A stretch of 64,000 nt of DNA, taken from a phage. The notes beneath the pieces were generated by a model. The model had not been told where the DNA came from and searched no databases. It was given only the letters and a program-made list of their open reading frames with translations. Made by a program: the position numbers and the translations under genes. Location: assembly GCA_017822615.1 (NCBI GenBank), contig GCA_017822615.1_4530.1. One strand, written 5' to 3'. This document shows positions 1 to 6,012 of this stretch, one piece after another; position 1 is the stretch's first letter; the number at the start of each line of letters is the position of its first letter.

Positions 1-296
1 AAAAAAACTTTAAATACTGTGGGCGCGCAAAATTTTTAAAATTTTCCTTGACTTTTGAGTTTTGTTTTGTATCTAACATTTTAAGATAATTTTCCTAAAC
101 TTTAAATTTTGGTTTTCAACTTTCACTTTTGTAAATTCTTAAAAAGTTTAAATAATTTGAGGGATTTTTGAGATAAAAGATAGTGGGAATTTGATATAAC
201 CTTTAATCTTATTGGTAAACCTTCAGGAACCCACTCAGATCGAATCCTAGTGATGCAAACTGAAAAAGACAAGGGTTTGTATAGGACAAAATAACA

Positions 297-332
297 GGCT
301 CTCTACGGTGCTGTAGGAGCCTTATTTCTGTG
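297..332. terminator. hairpin terminator at end of leftward early operon (possibly bidirectional)
   Basis: GGCTCTCTAC-ggtgct-GTAGGAGCC stem-loop (297-321, one bulge) followed by TTATTTCTGTG; lies just past the stop of the 378..920 gene. Confidence 0.45.
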
Positions 333-377
333 CTACAAAGTGACACCTTTGTTCTAAAAATGAAAAAAGTTAAAATA

Positions 378-920
378 TCACAAATATCGTCTTTGCGGTA
401 TTTTGTCTGGGAAAAGTATTTCGATCAGTTTATTATGATATTTGCCTAAAAGATTCTGCCCTTTCCAGGTAGCAGGGTTTAGCACCCCTGGTTCATACAT
501 TCCCATTCCAATACCGTAAACCTTATCGTAAGGACTTGCTTCAACAAACGTTTTGTATTGGTAAAGGTGTAAGTCTGCATACAAATCTGGATTCTGTACA
601 TATTTCAAGCATAAGCCTCGCATAACAATACGCTCACGGTTCTCTTCCCACATATCATTATTAAAACCAGATACCGCTCGACCCATACGTTTGTAGTATG
701 CTTGTTTCCTCTCGTTGTCACGTATAGTTGAGTGATCAAGGATAGCTGCTGCAATCGCATGATCCTTGAACAGCAAAGCCTTACGCCACATCATATATTG
801 CTCAACACAACAGAAAGTCTCATTGTAACCTGGTTCAGTTTCTGTAAAGGGTGCAATATACCAATTACTAAACACATCTTTATGTGAAAAGAAGAATACA
901 TATTCATCAGTTATTCTCAT
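378..920 (-). CDS. NADAR-domain protein (YbiA-like, DUF1768)
   Basis: 180 aa ORF; N-terminal FFFSHKDVFSNWY...PFT and central EQYMMWRKALLF resemble the conserved NADAR/YbiA core by eye; last gene of leftward operon. Confidence 0.6.
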   Translation of the reverse strand: MRITDEYVFFFSHKDVFSNWYIAPFTETEPGYNETFCCVEQYMMWRKALLFKDHAIAAAILDHSTIRDNERKQAYYKRMGRAVSGFNNDMWEENRERIVMRGLCLKYVQNPDLYADLHLYQYKTFVEASPYDKVYGIGMGMYEPGVLNPATWKGQNLLGKYHNKLIEILFPDKIPQRRYL

Positions 921-1132
921 TTTTTCATGCCTTCTAAAACTTTAGCTTGCCCGTCTTGAAAAGCTTTCATCAGAACTATCTTAAGATTGACTTCCAAACG
1001 TTCTTCATCCTCTCTATAACAATCCAACACTGCTTTAAGTTCATCATAGTGGTTCAGAATAGGTTTAAAGATTTCATGATCTGCTAAACGTGCCATAGTT
1101 TCTCCTTTGTTAGTCCATCCACCAGTAGCCAT
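917..1132 (-). CDS. hypothetical protein
   Basis: 71 aa ORF, 4-nt overlap with downstream gene (translational coupling), same strand as operon. Confidence 0.4.
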   Translation of the reverse strand: MATGGWTNKGETMARLADHEIFKPILNHYDELKAVLDCYREDEERLEVNLKIVLMKAFQDGQAKVLEGMKK

Positions 1133-1475
1133 AAACTGCGTCTGCGTCGATGAGTTTGTGTTTGTTGTTCCGCATGTAGTCTAAGATAAGTAGACGTTTA
1201 TTGTATCTGGAGAGATTATGACCCTCTTTTCCGCCATAGTCAAAATATTTTGCAAGATCTTTACACTCAAACAAAATCAGTTCGGGAGTTTCTTCACACT
1301 GGTCTGTCTGGTACACTTGACGAATGATCATGTATACATCGTCGTCTTCCGCTAAATGCTCTACTGGTCCACATCCAGCAGGAACAAATTCATAGTCCCA
1401 TCTGATCAGATGTTTCTCTACTGCTTCAAAGAAGTCCATTCTTTCGTTGCGCATAATTTGAACGTCAACTAACAT
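1110..1475 (-). CDS. hypothetical protein
   Basis: 121 aa ORF in leftward operon; start may lie downstream of the track start. Confidence 0.4.
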   Translation of the reverse strand: MLVDVQIMRNERMDFFEAVEKHLIRWDYEFVPAGCGPVEHLAEDDDVYMIIRQVYQTDQCEETPELILFECKDLAKYFDYGGKEGHNLSRYNKRLLILDYMRNNKHKLIDADAVYGYWWMD

Positions 1476-2929
1476 GTTTCCTCCTCTCTCATTATTCCAC
1501 CTGCTTGGTTGATAGCACTTAAGACGATAGCCAAATCCTCGCGCAGGAAGGTTTCACTATGACCATCTTTCATGTGCAAGCGTTCTACACAGCCAATAGA
1601 CGGTAGAATCTGATCAGTCTTAGACTTTAGCTTACTCTCTAACGCCCTGCAAGCTTGGTAGGACGGCAGATCGAACAATGCTATACGGCGCATAGAGTAA
1701 TTGTTGTTTGCATTCTGCCCTTTGATCCTGATATCACTGTCCTTTGCAATCCCCAACTTGTAAGCTCCCGTGTCTTCTCCGTACTCATCAAGAATAATAT
1801 TGATGTAAAATTCTTGCATATTTCTGTTCTTACAGCCTGGACAACCTTTCCCATTGAGATAATCGGTAGGTGTGATCGTTTGCTCTCCATGCTCCCTACA
1901 TAGATATTTAAACTTGCTGTTATTGCTTACCTTATCAATGAATCCTATAAATTGATCCCCTCGTTCCTGGCAAGCTTTGGTCATACGGTAGGCCCATTGT
2001 TCAGGAGTGTAATGATAATATTTAGAACAACGGCAAGGAAGGCCACCCCTTTTCAAATGACTCATCTTCATCTCAAATTTATTATCGCATAAGCCTTCTT
2101 TACAATAATCATCCTCTGCACATATAGGACATTCTACAATCCAGTAAACCTGACGACCTAATCTATCTACTCTATCGCTACGATAATATTTACGCTCTAC
2201 ATTATCAGGACAAGCTTTTATAAAATCTTCAACATGTTGTTTATCCTCCATTGTATTCCTTTGTTTCGTCATTTCTCTTTGACAACTGTAGCATCCAGTC
2301 CCTTGTTTAGCACTGTTTACAGTGGTAGTGCACCATTGACCATGAACCTTACACTCACAAATCAACTTAGTGCGGGAACCGTTCCACGGTTCCACATAGC
2401 CTCTAACAATCCAGGGTTTTTCTTTATAAGCTTCTTCTACTTCTTCTTTATGTTTCTCCCATGCAATCGATGTTCTTTCTCTGTTTGCTTCTCCCATACA
2501 CTTCCTGCATCCACTCCCGTTTTTCGCAGAAGATATAGAAGTAGATCTCCACTCCCCATGTAAAGCACAACAACAAACCAGTTTAGTATTCCATCCTTTC
2601 CATTCTCCGTGCCATCCTGTAACAGTCCAAAACTTACCTGCCTGATTGTAAGTGGTTTGCACTTCTTCTTTATATTGCTCCCAGGTTTTTGATTTGTTTA
2701 TAGATACTGCTTTACTTATAATCTCCCTACCGCATTCTGGACAACCCCTCCCTAGTTTAGCGGTATTTATGCTTGTTGTTTTCCATTCTCCATGCAGAGC
2801 ACAGATGCATCTAAGTTTAGTTTTATTGCCGTTCCACGGCTCAATATAATCTACAACAGTCCAAGACTTACCTTGATAAGCTTGTTTTATATCTGTTTTA
2901 TATTGTTCCCAAGTGACTATTTTTGGCAC
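1469..2929 (-). CDS. Cys-rich protein with three tandem ~60-aa zinc-ribbon-like repeats
   Basis: 486 aa; three repeats of W-x-YK...EPWNG-x-KTKL-x-C-x-CALHGEW-x-TT/S-I...AK-x-G-x-GC-x-x-C in the N-terminal ~210 aa, then further CxxC pairs (CPICAEDDYC, CPGCKN). Confidence 0.5.
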   Translation of the reverse strand: MPKIVTWEQYKTDIKQAYQGKSWTVVDYIEPWNGNKTKLRCICALHGEWKTTSINTAKLGRGCPECGREIISKAVSINKSKTWEQYKEEVQTTYNQAGKFWTVTGWHGEWKGWNTKLVCCCALHGEWRSTSISSAKNGSGCRKCMGEANRERTSIAWEKHKEEVEEAYKEKPWIVRGYVEPWNGSRTKLICECKVHGQWCTTTVNSAKQGTGCYSCQREMTKQRNTMEDKQHVEDFIKACPDNVERKYYRSDRVDRLGRQVYWIVECPICAEDDYCKEGLCDNKFEMKMSHLKRGGLPCRCSKYYHYTPEQWAYRMTKACQERGDQFIGFIDKVSNNSKFKYLCREHGEQTITPTDYLNGKGCPGCKNRNMQEFYINIILDEYGEDTGAYKLGIAKDSDIRIKGQNANNNYSMRRIALFDLPSYQACRALESKLKSKTDQILPSIGCVERLHMKDGHSETFLREDLAIVLSAINQAGGIMREEETC

Positions 2930-2979
2930 ACCTCCCCCTTTAGCTATTAGTGCGAGCCTACAACAAAAGAATAACTAAA

Positions 2980-3013
2980 ATCCCTCCATAACAAATGCCC
3001 CTTGCGGGGCATC
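2980..3013 (-). terminator. intra-operon hairpin (ATGCCCC-ttgc-GGGGCAT)
   Basis: perfect 7-bp GC-rich stem at 2995-3012, U-rich on the minus-strand RNA downstream (rc of AACAAA); between ATPase gene and repeat-protein gene. Confidence 0.45.
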
Positions 3014-3017
3014 TTTA

Positions 3018-4157
3018 TTAGAACACGCTACCAAGTGTAGTGGAACGTTGTGTTACAGGCTCCAGCACCACTCGCAAAGTGTTTCCTGGTGTAGTGCTCA
3101 TAACCAGAATCTTACCACCTTCAATCAGATCACAAGTTAGACCATCAGCCGTTGCACATAGATCAATATGTGGATCACCATCTTCATCCAGGATAACATA
3201 ACTGTTGGTTTCCATTGCTTCCACTTCATCATCTTTCAAACTTTGTAGATAGATGTTCAGGGAACAAGCACCCGACAAAAACTTAGTAGGGGTGAAGTCG
3301 TGCCAGTTATTGATCCAATTCACCTTCAAGGTTTTGCCATTAGCTACGATAGAAGCCACATTCCATTTAGCATCGTTCCCTAAAGAAATACCCATCATTT
3401 CAAGACATTCTTTAAAAGTCATTTTTGGATAGAAATTCAATTCTTCTACAATGCCTTGAATAACATCGAAAGACAACTCTGTGCTAACATCCCATAAACG
3501 TTGGAAGTTATCTACGTGCTTTTTATTTACCAAGTTCTTATCCAAGTAATCTAACATAGTTTCACTAGACAGTTTATCGTAATTGAAACTGTAGTAGATA
3601 CGACTAGGACGGTTTACAAAATATTCCGAGATATAACCACTATTTTTAGTGAGGATGTAAAGTTTATTCCCACTTCCTGTTCCATCCAACAAGGTCAACA
3701 GTGCTTCCTGATCTTCTTTCTTAGCGTACACTTTATCAAATTCGTCAAATAAAACAACAGCACGATCTGTAATTTTACTCATAAATTCTAAGAAGCCAGC
3801 ATCTGTGTAAGGCTGTGTAACCAAAATGGTTGGAATACCTAAACCTTCTGTGGACATTAGAGACATGCTAATTAGTTTAGCTAACATCGTCTTACCACTG
3901 CCTTTTGTCCCTGTCAGTAACACCCCAGTATTTTTACCTTCTTTACTACGACGAGCAAATGTTTTAATAACATGTGCGGCGCGATCTTTAGTTTCCCCAT
4001 AAAGAGTGTTCGGAAGAGAGAAACTTTCACCACGCACTAAAGAGTAGTTACCGTGCGGATCGCAGTTGACAACCCAAACTCCAGCAGGAAGTTTATTAGC
4101 TTCAACGCCATATTCCTTATTTACAACAGCTACATCTCCAAAAATAGTGTATTTCAT
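3018..4157 (-). CDS. P-loop NTPase (AAA-type ATPase-like)
   Basis: 379 aa; Walker A GTKGSGKT and Walker B-like VVLFDEFD. Confidence 0.55.
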   Translation of the reverse strand: MKYTIFGDVAVVNKEYGVEANKLPAGVWVVNCDPHGNYSLVRGESFSLPNTLYGETKDRAAHVIKTFARRSKEGKNTGVLLTGTKGSGKTMLAKLISMSLMSTEGLGIPTILVTQPYTDAGFLEFMSKITDRAVVLFDEFDKVYAKKEDQEALLTLLDGTGSGNKLYILTKNSGYISEYFVNRPSRIYYSFNYDKLSSETMLDYLDKNLVNKKHVDNFQRLWDVSTELSFDVIQGIVEELNFYPKMTFKECLEMMGISLGNDAKWNVASIVANGKTLKVNWINNWHDFTPTKFLSGACSLNIYLQSLKDDEVEAMETNSYVILDEDGDPHIDLCATADGLTCDLIEGGKILVMSTTPGNTLRVVLEPVTQRSTTLGSVF

Positions 4158-4513
4158 TAGAACGTTTCTCCTTTTAAAATAATTACTGTAAACTTTGCAG
4201 TTTTTTCACTCTTAATATTCTTGACTAATAAGTATTCTCCTCCAGGGGCATCTTTGTATTGTTTAATAGCTACTATTTCATTTTTGCAAGTAGCTATAAT
4301 CGAATAAAAAGGACGTTCCGTGTTATCTTCTTTTCCCGTATATGCCTCAACATCTTTACACTCTTCTAGAACACCATTCCCAGGTGTATAGTAAAACTTG
4401 TTGCCTGTGATCACAACATCTTTACCAATATCTGTTTTAACTGCTACAAATTTTTGAGCGTAAGTGGTGAAGCTTACGGTAGCCAGCAATGTGGCTAAGA
4501 TTAGTTTTTTCAT
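4157..4513 (-). CDS. secreted/periplasmic protein with signal peptide
   Basis: start moved to MKKLILATLLATVSFTTYAQK (cat at 4511-4513) preceded by GGAGG RBS; classical signal peptide. Confidence 0.5.
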   Translation of the reverse strand: MKKLILATLLATVSFTTYAQKFVAVKTDIGKDVVITGNKFYYTPGNGVLEECKDVEAYTGKEDNTERPFYSIIATCKNEIVAIKQYKDAPGGEYLLVKNIKSEKTAKFTVIILKGETF

Positions 4514-4524
4514 AAACTTCCCTC

Positions 4525-4689
4525 CTATTCCCACAACATACAAATCGCAGCGACAAACATATTAGCAATAGCCGCACCAAGAACTATAAACATCGCCAGT
4601 TCAGAACAATATTCACCAACCAAAGGGGATACTATTGCACAGAGTAACCCCAATGTCAAACACAAGTTGATGATGAAGTTTAAAATCAT
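4525..4689 (-). CDS. small hydrophobic membrane protein (54 aa)
   Basis: not in ORF track (<60 aa); MILNFIINLCLTLGLLCAIVSPLVGEYCSELAMFIVLGAAIANMFVAAICMLWE, AAGGAG RBS, fills the gap between flanking genes. Confidence 0.4.
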   Translation of the reverse strand: MILNFIINLCLTLGLLCAIVSPLVGEYCSELAMFIVLGAAIANMFVAAICMLWE

Positions 4690-4698
4690 ATTCTCTCC

Positions 4699-4890
4699 TT
4701 ACAACCAACCTTTTGCCTGATAGCCTTTAGAAAATCCATCTTCCCATTCTTCGAATTCCTTTTTGTGTGTCATTGGACAATATGGATTTACTTTATTAAA
4801 CATACCAAACTTGAACCCTGCGGTATACCCCTTCTTAAAAGCTATTGATTCTAAAGAGATCATATTCTTTCTCCTCTTAGAACTCGACAA
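4699..4890 (-). CDS. hypothetical protein
   Basis: 63 aa ORF in operon. Confidence 0.35.
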   Translation of the reverse strand: MSSSKRRKNMISLESIAFKKGYTAGFKFGMFNKVNPYCPMTHKKEFEEWEDGFSKGYQAKGWL

Positions 4891-5128
4891 TGATTTTGTC
4901 TAAGTGTTCTGCTTCAACTTGGGATAATGTTAACACCTGCACCAAACCTCTGTCAATACCAATTTTAATGACTTGCAAATAATCACCAAAAAGATCTGAT
5001 AAAGAAATAGCATGTTCCGTAACTACAATAACTTCATTACCTTTAGTGTATTCTTTCCACACCCGACTACATTTATAAATGTAATCTTTTTGATCTTCAG
5101 TAATCATTTTAGGTTTGATACTTAACAT
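4877..5128 (-). CDS. hypothetical protein
   Basis: 83 aa ORF, tightly packed in operon. Confidence 0.4.
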   Translation of the reverse strand: MLSIKPKMITEDQKDYIYKCSRVWKEYTKGNEVIVVTEHAISLSDLFGDYLQVIKIGIDRGLVQVLTLSQVEAEHLDKIIVEF

Positions 5129-5493
5129 TACATACTCCCGTATTCTGGTTCAATATTATGTTTACGACAAATGGTATCCCAACGTTCATTACCAAAACTT
5201 CTTCCATGTAGAGCGTTAAATGCGAAATGCTCTGCCAACCACAATACTACATCATCAGGATCTGTGTCAAGAGGAATTCTAAACTCTCGATCATAACGCA
5301 TACGCAGAATAAAATCCTTATCATCTTCAAGGAGATACATGTGACTTTTAGCCCGTGATGCCAAATCAAAGAAAGGAGGCTCATCTTTCCAAACGTGACG
5401 CTCAACTTCAACACCATGATCTACTACCAGAGTAGCGATCACCTCTCTCATTTCTTTACTAAACATATTACCTCCATTAACCAATGAGTTCAA
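5128..5493 (-). CDS. hypothetical protein
   Basis: 121 aa ORF, start/stop overlap with neighbours. Confidence 0.4.
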   Translation of the reverse strand: MNSLVNGGNMFSKEMREVIATLVVDHGVEVERHVWKDEPPFFDLASRAKSHMYLLEDDKDFILRMRYDREFRIPLDTDPDDVVLWLAEHFAFNALHGRSFGNERWDTICRKHNIEPEYGSM

Positions 5494-5665
5494 CTGCTTT
5501 GCAGATGTAGATCCAAACCGGAGTGAGCATAAGAGCTATACCGAATGCACAATTCCACTTAATTCCCATTTCCTCTATTAGAGACATGATTAAGCCAACA
5601 GCACTAATAATCAGATAGATCCCTAAGAAAGCCATTGTGAAGAATTCAGACATATTTAGCTCCAA
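5477..5665 (-). CDS. small membrane protein
   Basis: 62 aa, two hydrophobic segments. Confidence 0.4.
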   Translation of the reverse strand: MELNMSEFFTMAFLGIYLIISAVGLIMSLIEEMGIKWNCAFGIALMLTPVWIYICKAVELIG

Positions 5666-6012
5666 AGATTATCAAAATAACTAGCGAATAAAAGACGGCC
5701 CTCTAACCGTGCCTTCCTTTGATCTTCAGCATACACGATTTCTGGATTACCACTATCAATAAAAGCATTCTCCATCTTTTCTAAAATATTTAACCACTCT
5801 CTTCTACCTGTCTCCTCTTCTTCATCTGTATACGGCGCACTTCTATTTGGATACAAAACACGCATCAGTTTAGTGGGGATCATGACAAACGTGCTATTGT
5901 TTGCCTTCTCACGGAAGGCTTTAATTCCTGCATAGATTACCTTCCCCAAAGCTGCATCCAAATCCATCAGGTCACTTTCTTCTATTTGAATTTCATCGTG
6001 TACAATTTTCAT
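5656..6012 (-). CDS. hypothetical protein
   Basis: 118 aa ORF in operon. Confidence 0.4.
   Translation of the reverse strand: MKIVHDEIQIEESDLMDLDAALGKVIYAGIKAFREKANNSTFVMIPTKLMRVLYPNRSAPYTDEEEETGRREWLNILEKMENAFIDSGNPEIVYAEDQRKARLEGRLLFASYFDNLWS

Follow-up and report, generated by a model that had tools for sequence, protein, structure and literature searches.

RESULTS

The Endonuclease Gene Forms a Sharply Bounded Cassette

The window, a 64,000-nucleotide stretch of phage DNA, originates from a Phapecoctavirus (a phAPEC8-like E. coli myophage). Over bases 1-6000, nucleotide identity is 99.9% with phages ESCO37, REC, and Ro121lw and 99.8% with ESCO13. The locus described here contains the following features.

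1110..1475, minus strand: downstream flanking gene, 121 aa, matching no family; begins inside the 3' end of the endonuclease gene
1469..2929, minus strand: endonuclease coding sequence, 486 aa, GTG start, TAG stop at 1469-1471; matches PHROG 681 'endonuclease' with E = 8.8e-84
1473..1486, minus strand: last codons of the endonuclease gene, GAGGAGGAAACATG, holding the ribosome-binding site and the ATG of the downstream 121-aa gene
1486..3012, no strand assigned: variable cassette, comprising the endonuclease gene and its upstream spacer; nucleotide homology to phages with other alleles stops at both points
2995..3012, no strand assigned: terminator-like hairpin with the palindrome ATGCCCC-GCAA-GGGGCAT, at the edge of the cassette and closely following the ATPase stop codon
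3018..4157, minus strand: upstream flanking gene, encoding an AAA-type ATPase of 379 aa (Pfam AAA, E = 8.7e-7), conserved with 97.5-99.4% nucleotide identity across alleles

The 486-aa open reading frame at 1469-2929, reported in an earlier note made from the DNA letters, is present on the minus strand with its GTG start just 3' of AAAGGGGGAGGT, and the same coding sequence appears as gp171 in the RefSeq record of ESCO13, where it is labelled 'endonuclease'. Many GenBank records label the gene 'hypothetical protein'. We found no Phapecoctavirus literature on it, NCBIfam holds no family for the protein, and a tblastn search returned no paralogues elsewhere in the 64-kb window. We detected no sigma-70-like promoter in the 88-nt spacer upstream of the gene, only the terminator-like hairpin. 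A hairpin is located at the ATPase end in every allele, in one of two sequence types, and the annotation of phage ASO2A lists it as a rho-independent terminator.

Comparison with four other phapecoctaviruses by blastn gave sharp breakpoints at ~1485 and ~3013. The flanks are 96-99% identical, whereas the cassette cannot be aligned with other alleles at the DNA level. The end of the endonuclease gene is conserved as GAGGAGGAAACATGTTAG in all five of the Phapecoctavirus alleles with near-identical flanks, and phage phiWec179 has the variant end CAGGAGGAAAATTATG.

The Protein Contains Five CapR-type Zinc Modules

We divided the protein into the following segments, all encoded on the minus strand.

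2696..2929, minus strand: repeat R1 (aa 1-78), CapR-type zinc module; putative ligands C41/C43/H46 and C63/C66; Pfam CapR E = 7.5e-6, 26.5 bits when scanned alone
2468..2695, minus strand: repeat R2 (aa 79-154); putative ligands C119-C121/H124 and C141/C144; Pfam CapR E = 1.6e-4, 22.2 bits when scanned alone
2240..2467, minus strand: repeat R3 (aa 155-230); putative ligands C191/C193/H196 and C213/C216; Pfam CapR E = 1.1e-4, 22.8 bits when scanned alone
2012..2239, minus strand: module M4 (aa 231-306), canonical CapR arrangement C267xxC270 ... C299xC301; Pfam CapR E = 1.7e-10, 41.4 bits when scanned alone
1820..2011, minus strand: module M5 (aa 307-370), C344xxH347 ... C363xxC366; Pfam CapR E = 1.4e-9, 38.4 bits when scanned alone
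1472..1819, minus strand: C-terminal predicted nuclease domain (aa 371-486) with a GIY-YIG fold, T5orf172-like; invariant residues Y375, K391, G393, R401, E431, D455, G456, E459, and T460

The earlier note had described three tandem repeats of ~60 aa. Three such repeats are indeed found, but their period is 76-78 aa, made up of a ~60-aa core and a helical linker. Pairwise BLOSUM62 local scores among R1-R3 are 186-219, compared with means of ~29 (sd ~5.6) for shuffled sequences, corresponding to z = 27-35 (z = 28-35 for R1 against R2 and R3). The motifs quoted at the time can be located as W-E-Q/K-Y/H-K, EPWNG/GEWKG-x-x-TKL-x-C-x-C-x-x-HG-E/Q-W, and G-C-x-x-C. The 'further CxxC pairs' that were said to follow the repeats are real; however, they belong to two further modules of this kind that have diverged, M4 and M5, the latter scoring z = 10 against R1 in the shuffle comparison. 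At the level of sequence, the protein carries five modules, three close tandem repeats and two diverged copies. Nucleotide identity among R1-R3 is only 56-60%, and we thus regard them as old rather than recent duplications.

The putative metal ligands follow two patterns. R1-R3 and M5 have the variant arrangement C(xC)xxH ... CxxC with 15-19 aa between the knuckles, and in M4 28 aa separate the two pairs. All four cysteines of M4 are invariant in 26 relatives, as are the ligand residues of M5 and the putative ligands C193, C213, and C216 of R3, which is the one N-terminal repeat common to all alleles.

Structure prediction, which the earlier note had proposed, yielded a full-length model with pLDDT 82 and pTM 0.41, in which separately folded modules are strung on low-confidence linkers (at aa 69-79 and 149-154). 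Each modelled module folds as alpha-beta-beta-beta-knuckle-alpha. A Foldseek comparison of the full-length model with the PDB returned nothing with E < 1e-3, PDB sequence searches with the protein and with family profiles gave nothing significant, and in these searches no solved structure was significantly similar to the zinc module. A likeness of the repeats to tandem dsRNA-binding domains stayed below significance (Foldseek E = 1e-3, probability 0.57, TM 0.08-0.14), and the Pfam DSRM_2 match of the protein (E = 0.068) is likewise non-significant. Weak matches to the bL31 zinc-ribbon ribosomal protein in the PDB search (E = 0.012) were taken as a coincidence of cysteine knuckles.

The family of the repeats, which had gone unrecognized in the earlier note, can be identified. 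The Pfam CapR homology domain PF21817 matches the whole protein with 99.3 bits (E = 1.4e-28) in five stretches. Scanned singly, R1, M4, and M5 exceed the gathering score of 24.2 bits, with R2 and R3 just under it. CapR, from the Vibrio cholerae satellite PLE, represses the capsid operon. In phage ICP1, the T5orf172-type putative homing endonucleases have an N-terminal region that binds DNA, to which CapR is homologous and from which it derives (PMC8096241). CapR has a CxxC and a CxC pair about 24-26 aa apart, and Cys-to-Ser mutants have established that it does not bind DNA, in vivo or in EMSA, unless both pairs are intact (PMC8096241). Among T5orf172 homing endonuclease genes, 87% have CapR, DUF723, or DUF4379-like zinc fingers, often several in a row like 'beads on a string', and the number of these repeats changes through recombination among them, for example in ICP1 gp174 (Barth et al. 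2023, PMC10448857). The architecture that the earlier note pointed out had therefore already been described, and the repeats are of a zinc-ribbon type known from homing endonucleases (CapR, T5orf172), an identity that the note itself had named as counting against its reading. By analogy with CapR, DNA binding is the best-supported, putative role of the repeats.

The C-terminal Domain Has a GIY-YIG Fold

The C-terminal domain is non-repetitive, as previously noted, with z near 0 against every module. What had been overlooked is that it represents a predicted nuclease domain of the GIY-YIG fold. An AlphaFold2 model calculated from a 13-sequence alignment (pLDDT 90, pTM 0.83) has the GIY-YIG alpha/beta fold, with a three-stranded sheet flanked by helices. 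The match to Pfam T5orf172 (PF10544) reaches 13.7 bits (E = 0.092, profile positions 3-86 of 101), which is less than the 20-bit gathering score. T5orf172 is nevertheless the best Pfam match in 12 of 13 relatives, always under the cut-off (best E = 0.0019); its sister family MUG113 matches four of the 13, and in a wider set of 55 relatives T5orf172 is found at E <= 0.01 in five. ICP1 gp165, a published member of the family, reaches only 18 bits and misses the PF10544 cut-off too, so that a score of this kind is typical of the branch.

All of the invariant residues listed above are retained in 55 diverse relatives. They include the Tyr/Arg/Glu set of GIY-YIG catalysis, with Tyr-375 in the first motif, Arg-401 in helix 1, and Glu-431 in helix 2. 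In place of the second-motif tyrosine, the protein has K391-x-G393, a substitution shared with gp165 and the ICP1 nuclease Odn (K-V-G). Arg-401 and Glu-431 align, via gp165, with Arg-148 and Glu-180 of Odn, which cleaves DNA in vitro and whose E180A mutation abolishes cleavage (PMC8263062). A direct comparison of the C-terminal profile with Odn (hhalign) gave no signal, and our mapping of the catalytic residues onto Odn is therefore transitive, via gp165.

A search of 1.84 billion proteins with the C-terminal profile returned 790 cluster representatives. Among the 150 of these 790 that were listed, nearly all carry the domain at the C terminus, in proteins of ~100-530 aa, and 53 of 55 sampled holders of the domain also contain CapR. 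The domain forms a subfamily of its own, with the motifs Y-I-N, K-[LF]-G-I, R-x3-Q-N, and DG-x-[ST]-ET. The presence of a GIY-YIG-fold domain indicates that the 486-aa protein is most likely an enzyme, a predicted nuclease, rather than just a binder. The earlier suggestion of a multivalent nucleic-acid- or protein-binding protein is supported for nucleic acid by the CapR domains, but falls short in leaving out the nuclease-fold domain.

Relatives of the protein were detected by tblastn in 342 phage records (134 from Vibrio, 122 from Escherichia, 25 from Klebsiella, 14 from Aeromonas, and others). They include ICP1 ORF165/gp165 (29% identity over aa 182-479 in BLASTP, E = 3e-30), which has been named a CapR/T5orf172 putative homing endonuclease (YP_004251107; Netter et al. 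2021, PMC8096241; Barth et al. 2023, PMC10448857).

Alleles Differ in the Number of N-terminal Repeats

The segment 700-3900 of the window matches 71 phage records, 23 of which carry the allele described here. Most of the remaining records match only the flanks (~50% coverage); three of the phiWec179 type reach 74%, and four cover less than half of the query (24-43%). Other alleles encode proteins of 332 aa in tuntematon, 394 aa in phAPEC8, 400 aa in Ro121c4YLVW, and 402 aa in ESCO5. These four share 57-71% identity with each other and 33-40% with the window protein. M4, M5, and the nuclease domain are common to all alleles, and the number of N-terminal repeats is one, two, or, in the window, three. 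The C-terminal half of phiWec179 corresponds to that of this allele (81% nucleotide identity) and is joined to a single, different N-terminal repeat, a mosaic that indicates domain shuffling.

We found no clean, endonuclease-free 'empty site': the six phapecoctaviruses with a differing allele that were examined in detail all carry a diverged allele, and in the other flank-only matches the size of the slot fits an allele with one or two repeats. The only record without the cassette is that of EP57, in which 1488-3027 is missing and the flanking ORFs are fused. We did not accept it as a clean empty site because the ATPase stop codon is deleted as well; the record looks poorly assembled and may represent an artefact. 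Two SNPs (3033 and 3077) that seemed to be allele-linked among five genomes no longer were when 12 genomes were compared, and no flank SNP is linked to allele type across these 12. A direct trace of co-conversion or of a change in target-site immunity is consequently absent.

DISCUSSION

Our analysis places the protein in the ICP1 gp165-type family: it consists of five CapR-type zinc-knuckle modules followed by a GIY-YIG-fold domain with the Tyr/Arg/Glu catalytic set, and its gene lies in a sharply bounded, highly polymorphic cassette. The failure of the earlier note to recognize a family is resolved by Pfam PF21817, by the 'endonuclease' labels of PHROG 681 and RefSeq, and by the architecture published in PMC10448857. 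We consider it probable (roughly 0.8) that the Phapecoctavirus carries here a CapR/T5orf172-family gene of the homing-endonuclease type, free-standing and with homing as its putative activity.

In the mechanism we envisage, each module would coordinate one zinc ion using a C-x-C-x2-H or C-x2-C knuckle together with a C-x2-C or C-x-C knuckle, and the array of modules would read a long, asymmetric DNA site. The tethered nuclease domain may then cut near the bound site. As suggested by the arrangement of the locus, the enzyme would in mixed infections cleave genomes that have another allele, or none, at this position, and repair off the donor genome would copy the cassette (1486-3012) into the cut genome. 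The number and sequence of the N-terminal modules, one to three, could set target specificity. More speculatively, the alleles at the locus might form a natural series built on one endonuclease scaffold, to which one, two, or three CapR modules have been added. Alleles with different targets would then cut each other's genomes and compete in mixed infections, amounting to marker exclusion or gene drive between phages; we think this extension of the model a long shot.

An alternative explanation is that the gene is a domesticated derivative kept because it is useful, either as a site-specific DNA-binding regulator resembling CapR or as an Odn-like nuclease directed against competitors such as phages and satellites. 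That each of the differing-allele phapecoctaviruses examined in detail carries an allele, that slot sizes elsewhere fit one, and that no clean empty site was seen would all be in line with this idea. In addition, the downstream gene has its ribosome-binding site and start codon within the endonuclease gene, an arrangement that points to a long stay at the locus and to incorporation into the operon. There is precedent as well, as CapR and Odn have both been domesticated from this family (PMC8096241; PMC8263062), and I-TevI also acts as a repressor (PMC10448857). However, amino acid identities of 33-40% between alleles within near-identical flanks, together with the sharp breakpoints, are what would be expected of turnover by cleavage and repair, and such divergence is hard to square with the ordinary vertical descent of a housekeeping gene. 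The invariant catalytic residues argue against a pure binder or repressor, whereas a competitor-directed nuclease is harder to dismiss and overlaps with the homing endonuclease explanation. We therefore regard domestication as unlikely, although it fares best among the alternatives.

Far less probable is the multivalent early protein of the earlier note, understood as a zinc-ribbon scaffold devoid of enzymatic activity that would bind nucleic acid or host proteins. Five zinc modules with flexible linkers between them would suit such a scaffold, as would a C-terminal domain that scores under the Pfam cut-off for any nuclease family and the weak fold likeness of the repeats to tandem dsRNA-binding domains. 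This likeness is below any significance threshold, however, and a GIY-YIG fold with invariant Tyr/Arg/Glu residues and the clear homology to named endonucleases both speak for an enzyme. An HNH endonuclease, suggested by a match to phrog_559 'HNH endonuclease' (E = 6.2e-25), can be dismissed because this match is limited to the zinc modules (aa 8-248), which are common to endonucleases of different catalytic types; moreover, the protein has no Pfam HNH match, and its C-terminal fold is that of GIY-YIG.

Having arrived at a putative homing endonuclease, we can now name the protein as a CapR-domain, T5orf172/GIY-YIG-like member of this class. Its gene probably represents an ordinary selfish-gene cassette and opens no new protein class. 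Phapecoctaviruses are therapeutic and biocontrol candidates, and the endonuclease locus is a recombination hot spot in them. The allelic series with one, two, and three repeats shows cleanly, in nature, how the number of repeats can vary in the DNA-binding arm of such an enzyme, as has been proposed for ICP1 (PMC10448857); it illustrates published ideas neatly, without going beyond what they lead one to expect. Should the CapR modules each recognize a short DNA word on their own, the series could reflect a modular, potentially programmable recognition code distinct from those of C2H2 fingers and TALEs. As no solved structure matched the module in our searches, the structure of a DNA-bound CapR module would be the most useful new datum.

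We compared the protein to known systems. ICP1 gp165 and its kin likewise have several N-terminal CapR-type zinc modules and a T5orf172/GIY-YIG-like C terminus, and gp165 and the window protein both just miss the Pfam T5orf172 cut-off. The variation of repeat number by recombination in ICP1 gp174 (PMC10448857) resembles the alleles with one, two, and three repeats described here. In contrast to the ICP1 family, the window protein comes from another lineage, a Phapecoctavirus of E. coli, the knuckles of R1-R3 are ordered C-x-C-x2-H ... C-x2-C rather than CxxC ... CxC, and the C-terminal domain forms a separate subfamily. The PLE repressor CapR, the founder of PF21817, shares the zinc-knuckle module, with C267xxC270 and C299xC301 of M4 separated by 28 aa, compared with CxxC and CxC separated by 24 to 26 aa in CapR. 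It is, however, a stand-alone repressor of 15.5 kDa without a nuclease domain, whereas the window protein combines five modules with a predicted nuclease domain. ICP1 Odn (gp88), the biochemically characterized T5orf172 nuclease (PMC8263062), has a catalytic domain of the same T5orf172 type, yet direct similarity to the window protein is undetectable. The domain order is reversed in I-TevI and the T4 GIY-YIG homing endonucleases: the nuclease of I-TevI is N-terminal, its linker contains one small zinc finger, and a helix-turn-helix serves for binding, unlike in the window protein, where in addition the tyrosine of YIG is replaced by the K-x-G motif. Similarity between the two is undetectable at the sequence level. 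The structure-specific GIY-YIG nucleases SLX1 and HIGLE (10-13% identity) are related by fold only, and SLX1 differs further in being eukaryotic, in having the partner SLX4, and in carrying a RING/PHD finger.

The endonuclease gene end and the next gene

The endonuclease alleles of Phapecoctavirus are diverged elsewhere in their sequence, and yet they have the C-terminus ...EETC in common. They share this end because the terminal part of the endonuclease gene holds the Shine-Dalgarno sequence and the ATG start codon of the next gene, which encodes a 121-aa protein (window 1473..1486, minus strand; GAGGAGGAAACATG). On the other side of the cassette, we found three bases (A, T and C) at window 3033 among 12 phages that are near-identical otherwise. 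This position falls close to the ATPase gene's 3' end, with the stop codon 15 nt away, and its base showed no association with the endonuclease allele in the 12 phages.

The cassette is absent from one record only, that of Escherichia phage EP57 (OR544956):

Cassette-less locus of EP57
L003 (the EP57 record) 1626..3131: window 1488-3027 deleted

Here, the ATPase ORF and the 121-aa ORF are fused in frame into a 501-aa CDS. Because the EP57 genome is only 130 kb in size and contains numerous very short CDS, the loss of the cassette may represent an assembly artefact rather than a natural empty site.

A metagenomic protein of 669 aa (P0002) consists of two complete endonucleases of the CapR/GIY-YIG-like family joined head-to-tail and in frame, with zinc modules and a GIY-YIG-like domain present in both halves. 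This fusion implies that two alleles can lie in tandem at such a locus.

In the region around the endonuclease gene, E. coli phapecoctaviruses share 93-99% identity with phages that were submitted under host names other than Escherichia:

Examples of phages with non-Escherichia names
MG065650: 'Campylobacter phage B15'
OP562383: 'Acinetobacter phage ABPW7'
OR584014: 'Pseudomonas phage PsgM04F'
MH252123: 'Klebsiella phage ZCKP1'

Contamination, or a host range of unusual breadth, could account for these host names.

Other features of the window

The GC skew changes sign at ~6 kb and ~42 kb, and these changes coincide with coding-strand switches of the large ORFs (window ~6000 and ~42000). No tRNA genes were found within the 64-kb window. 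The 180-aa protein encoded at window 378..920 (minus strand) matches Pfam PF08719 (NADAR; E = 3.4e-35) and is a NADAR-domain protein. The name 'GTP cyclohydrolase II', given to it in several GenBank records, is probably a mis-annotation.

Comparison of the repeats with dsRNA-binding domains

The endonuclease repeats (aa 1-230; the first, R1, at window 2696..2929) have an alpha-beta-beta-beta-(Zn knuckle)-alpha topology. The top Foldseek matches, all non-significant, are the tandem dsRNA-binding-domain proteins TARBP2, Loqs, R2D2 and NF90, and Pfam DSRM_2 gives E = 0.068 for the endonuclease. It is possible, but unproven, that CapR modules contain a core resembling that of the dsRNA-binding domain.
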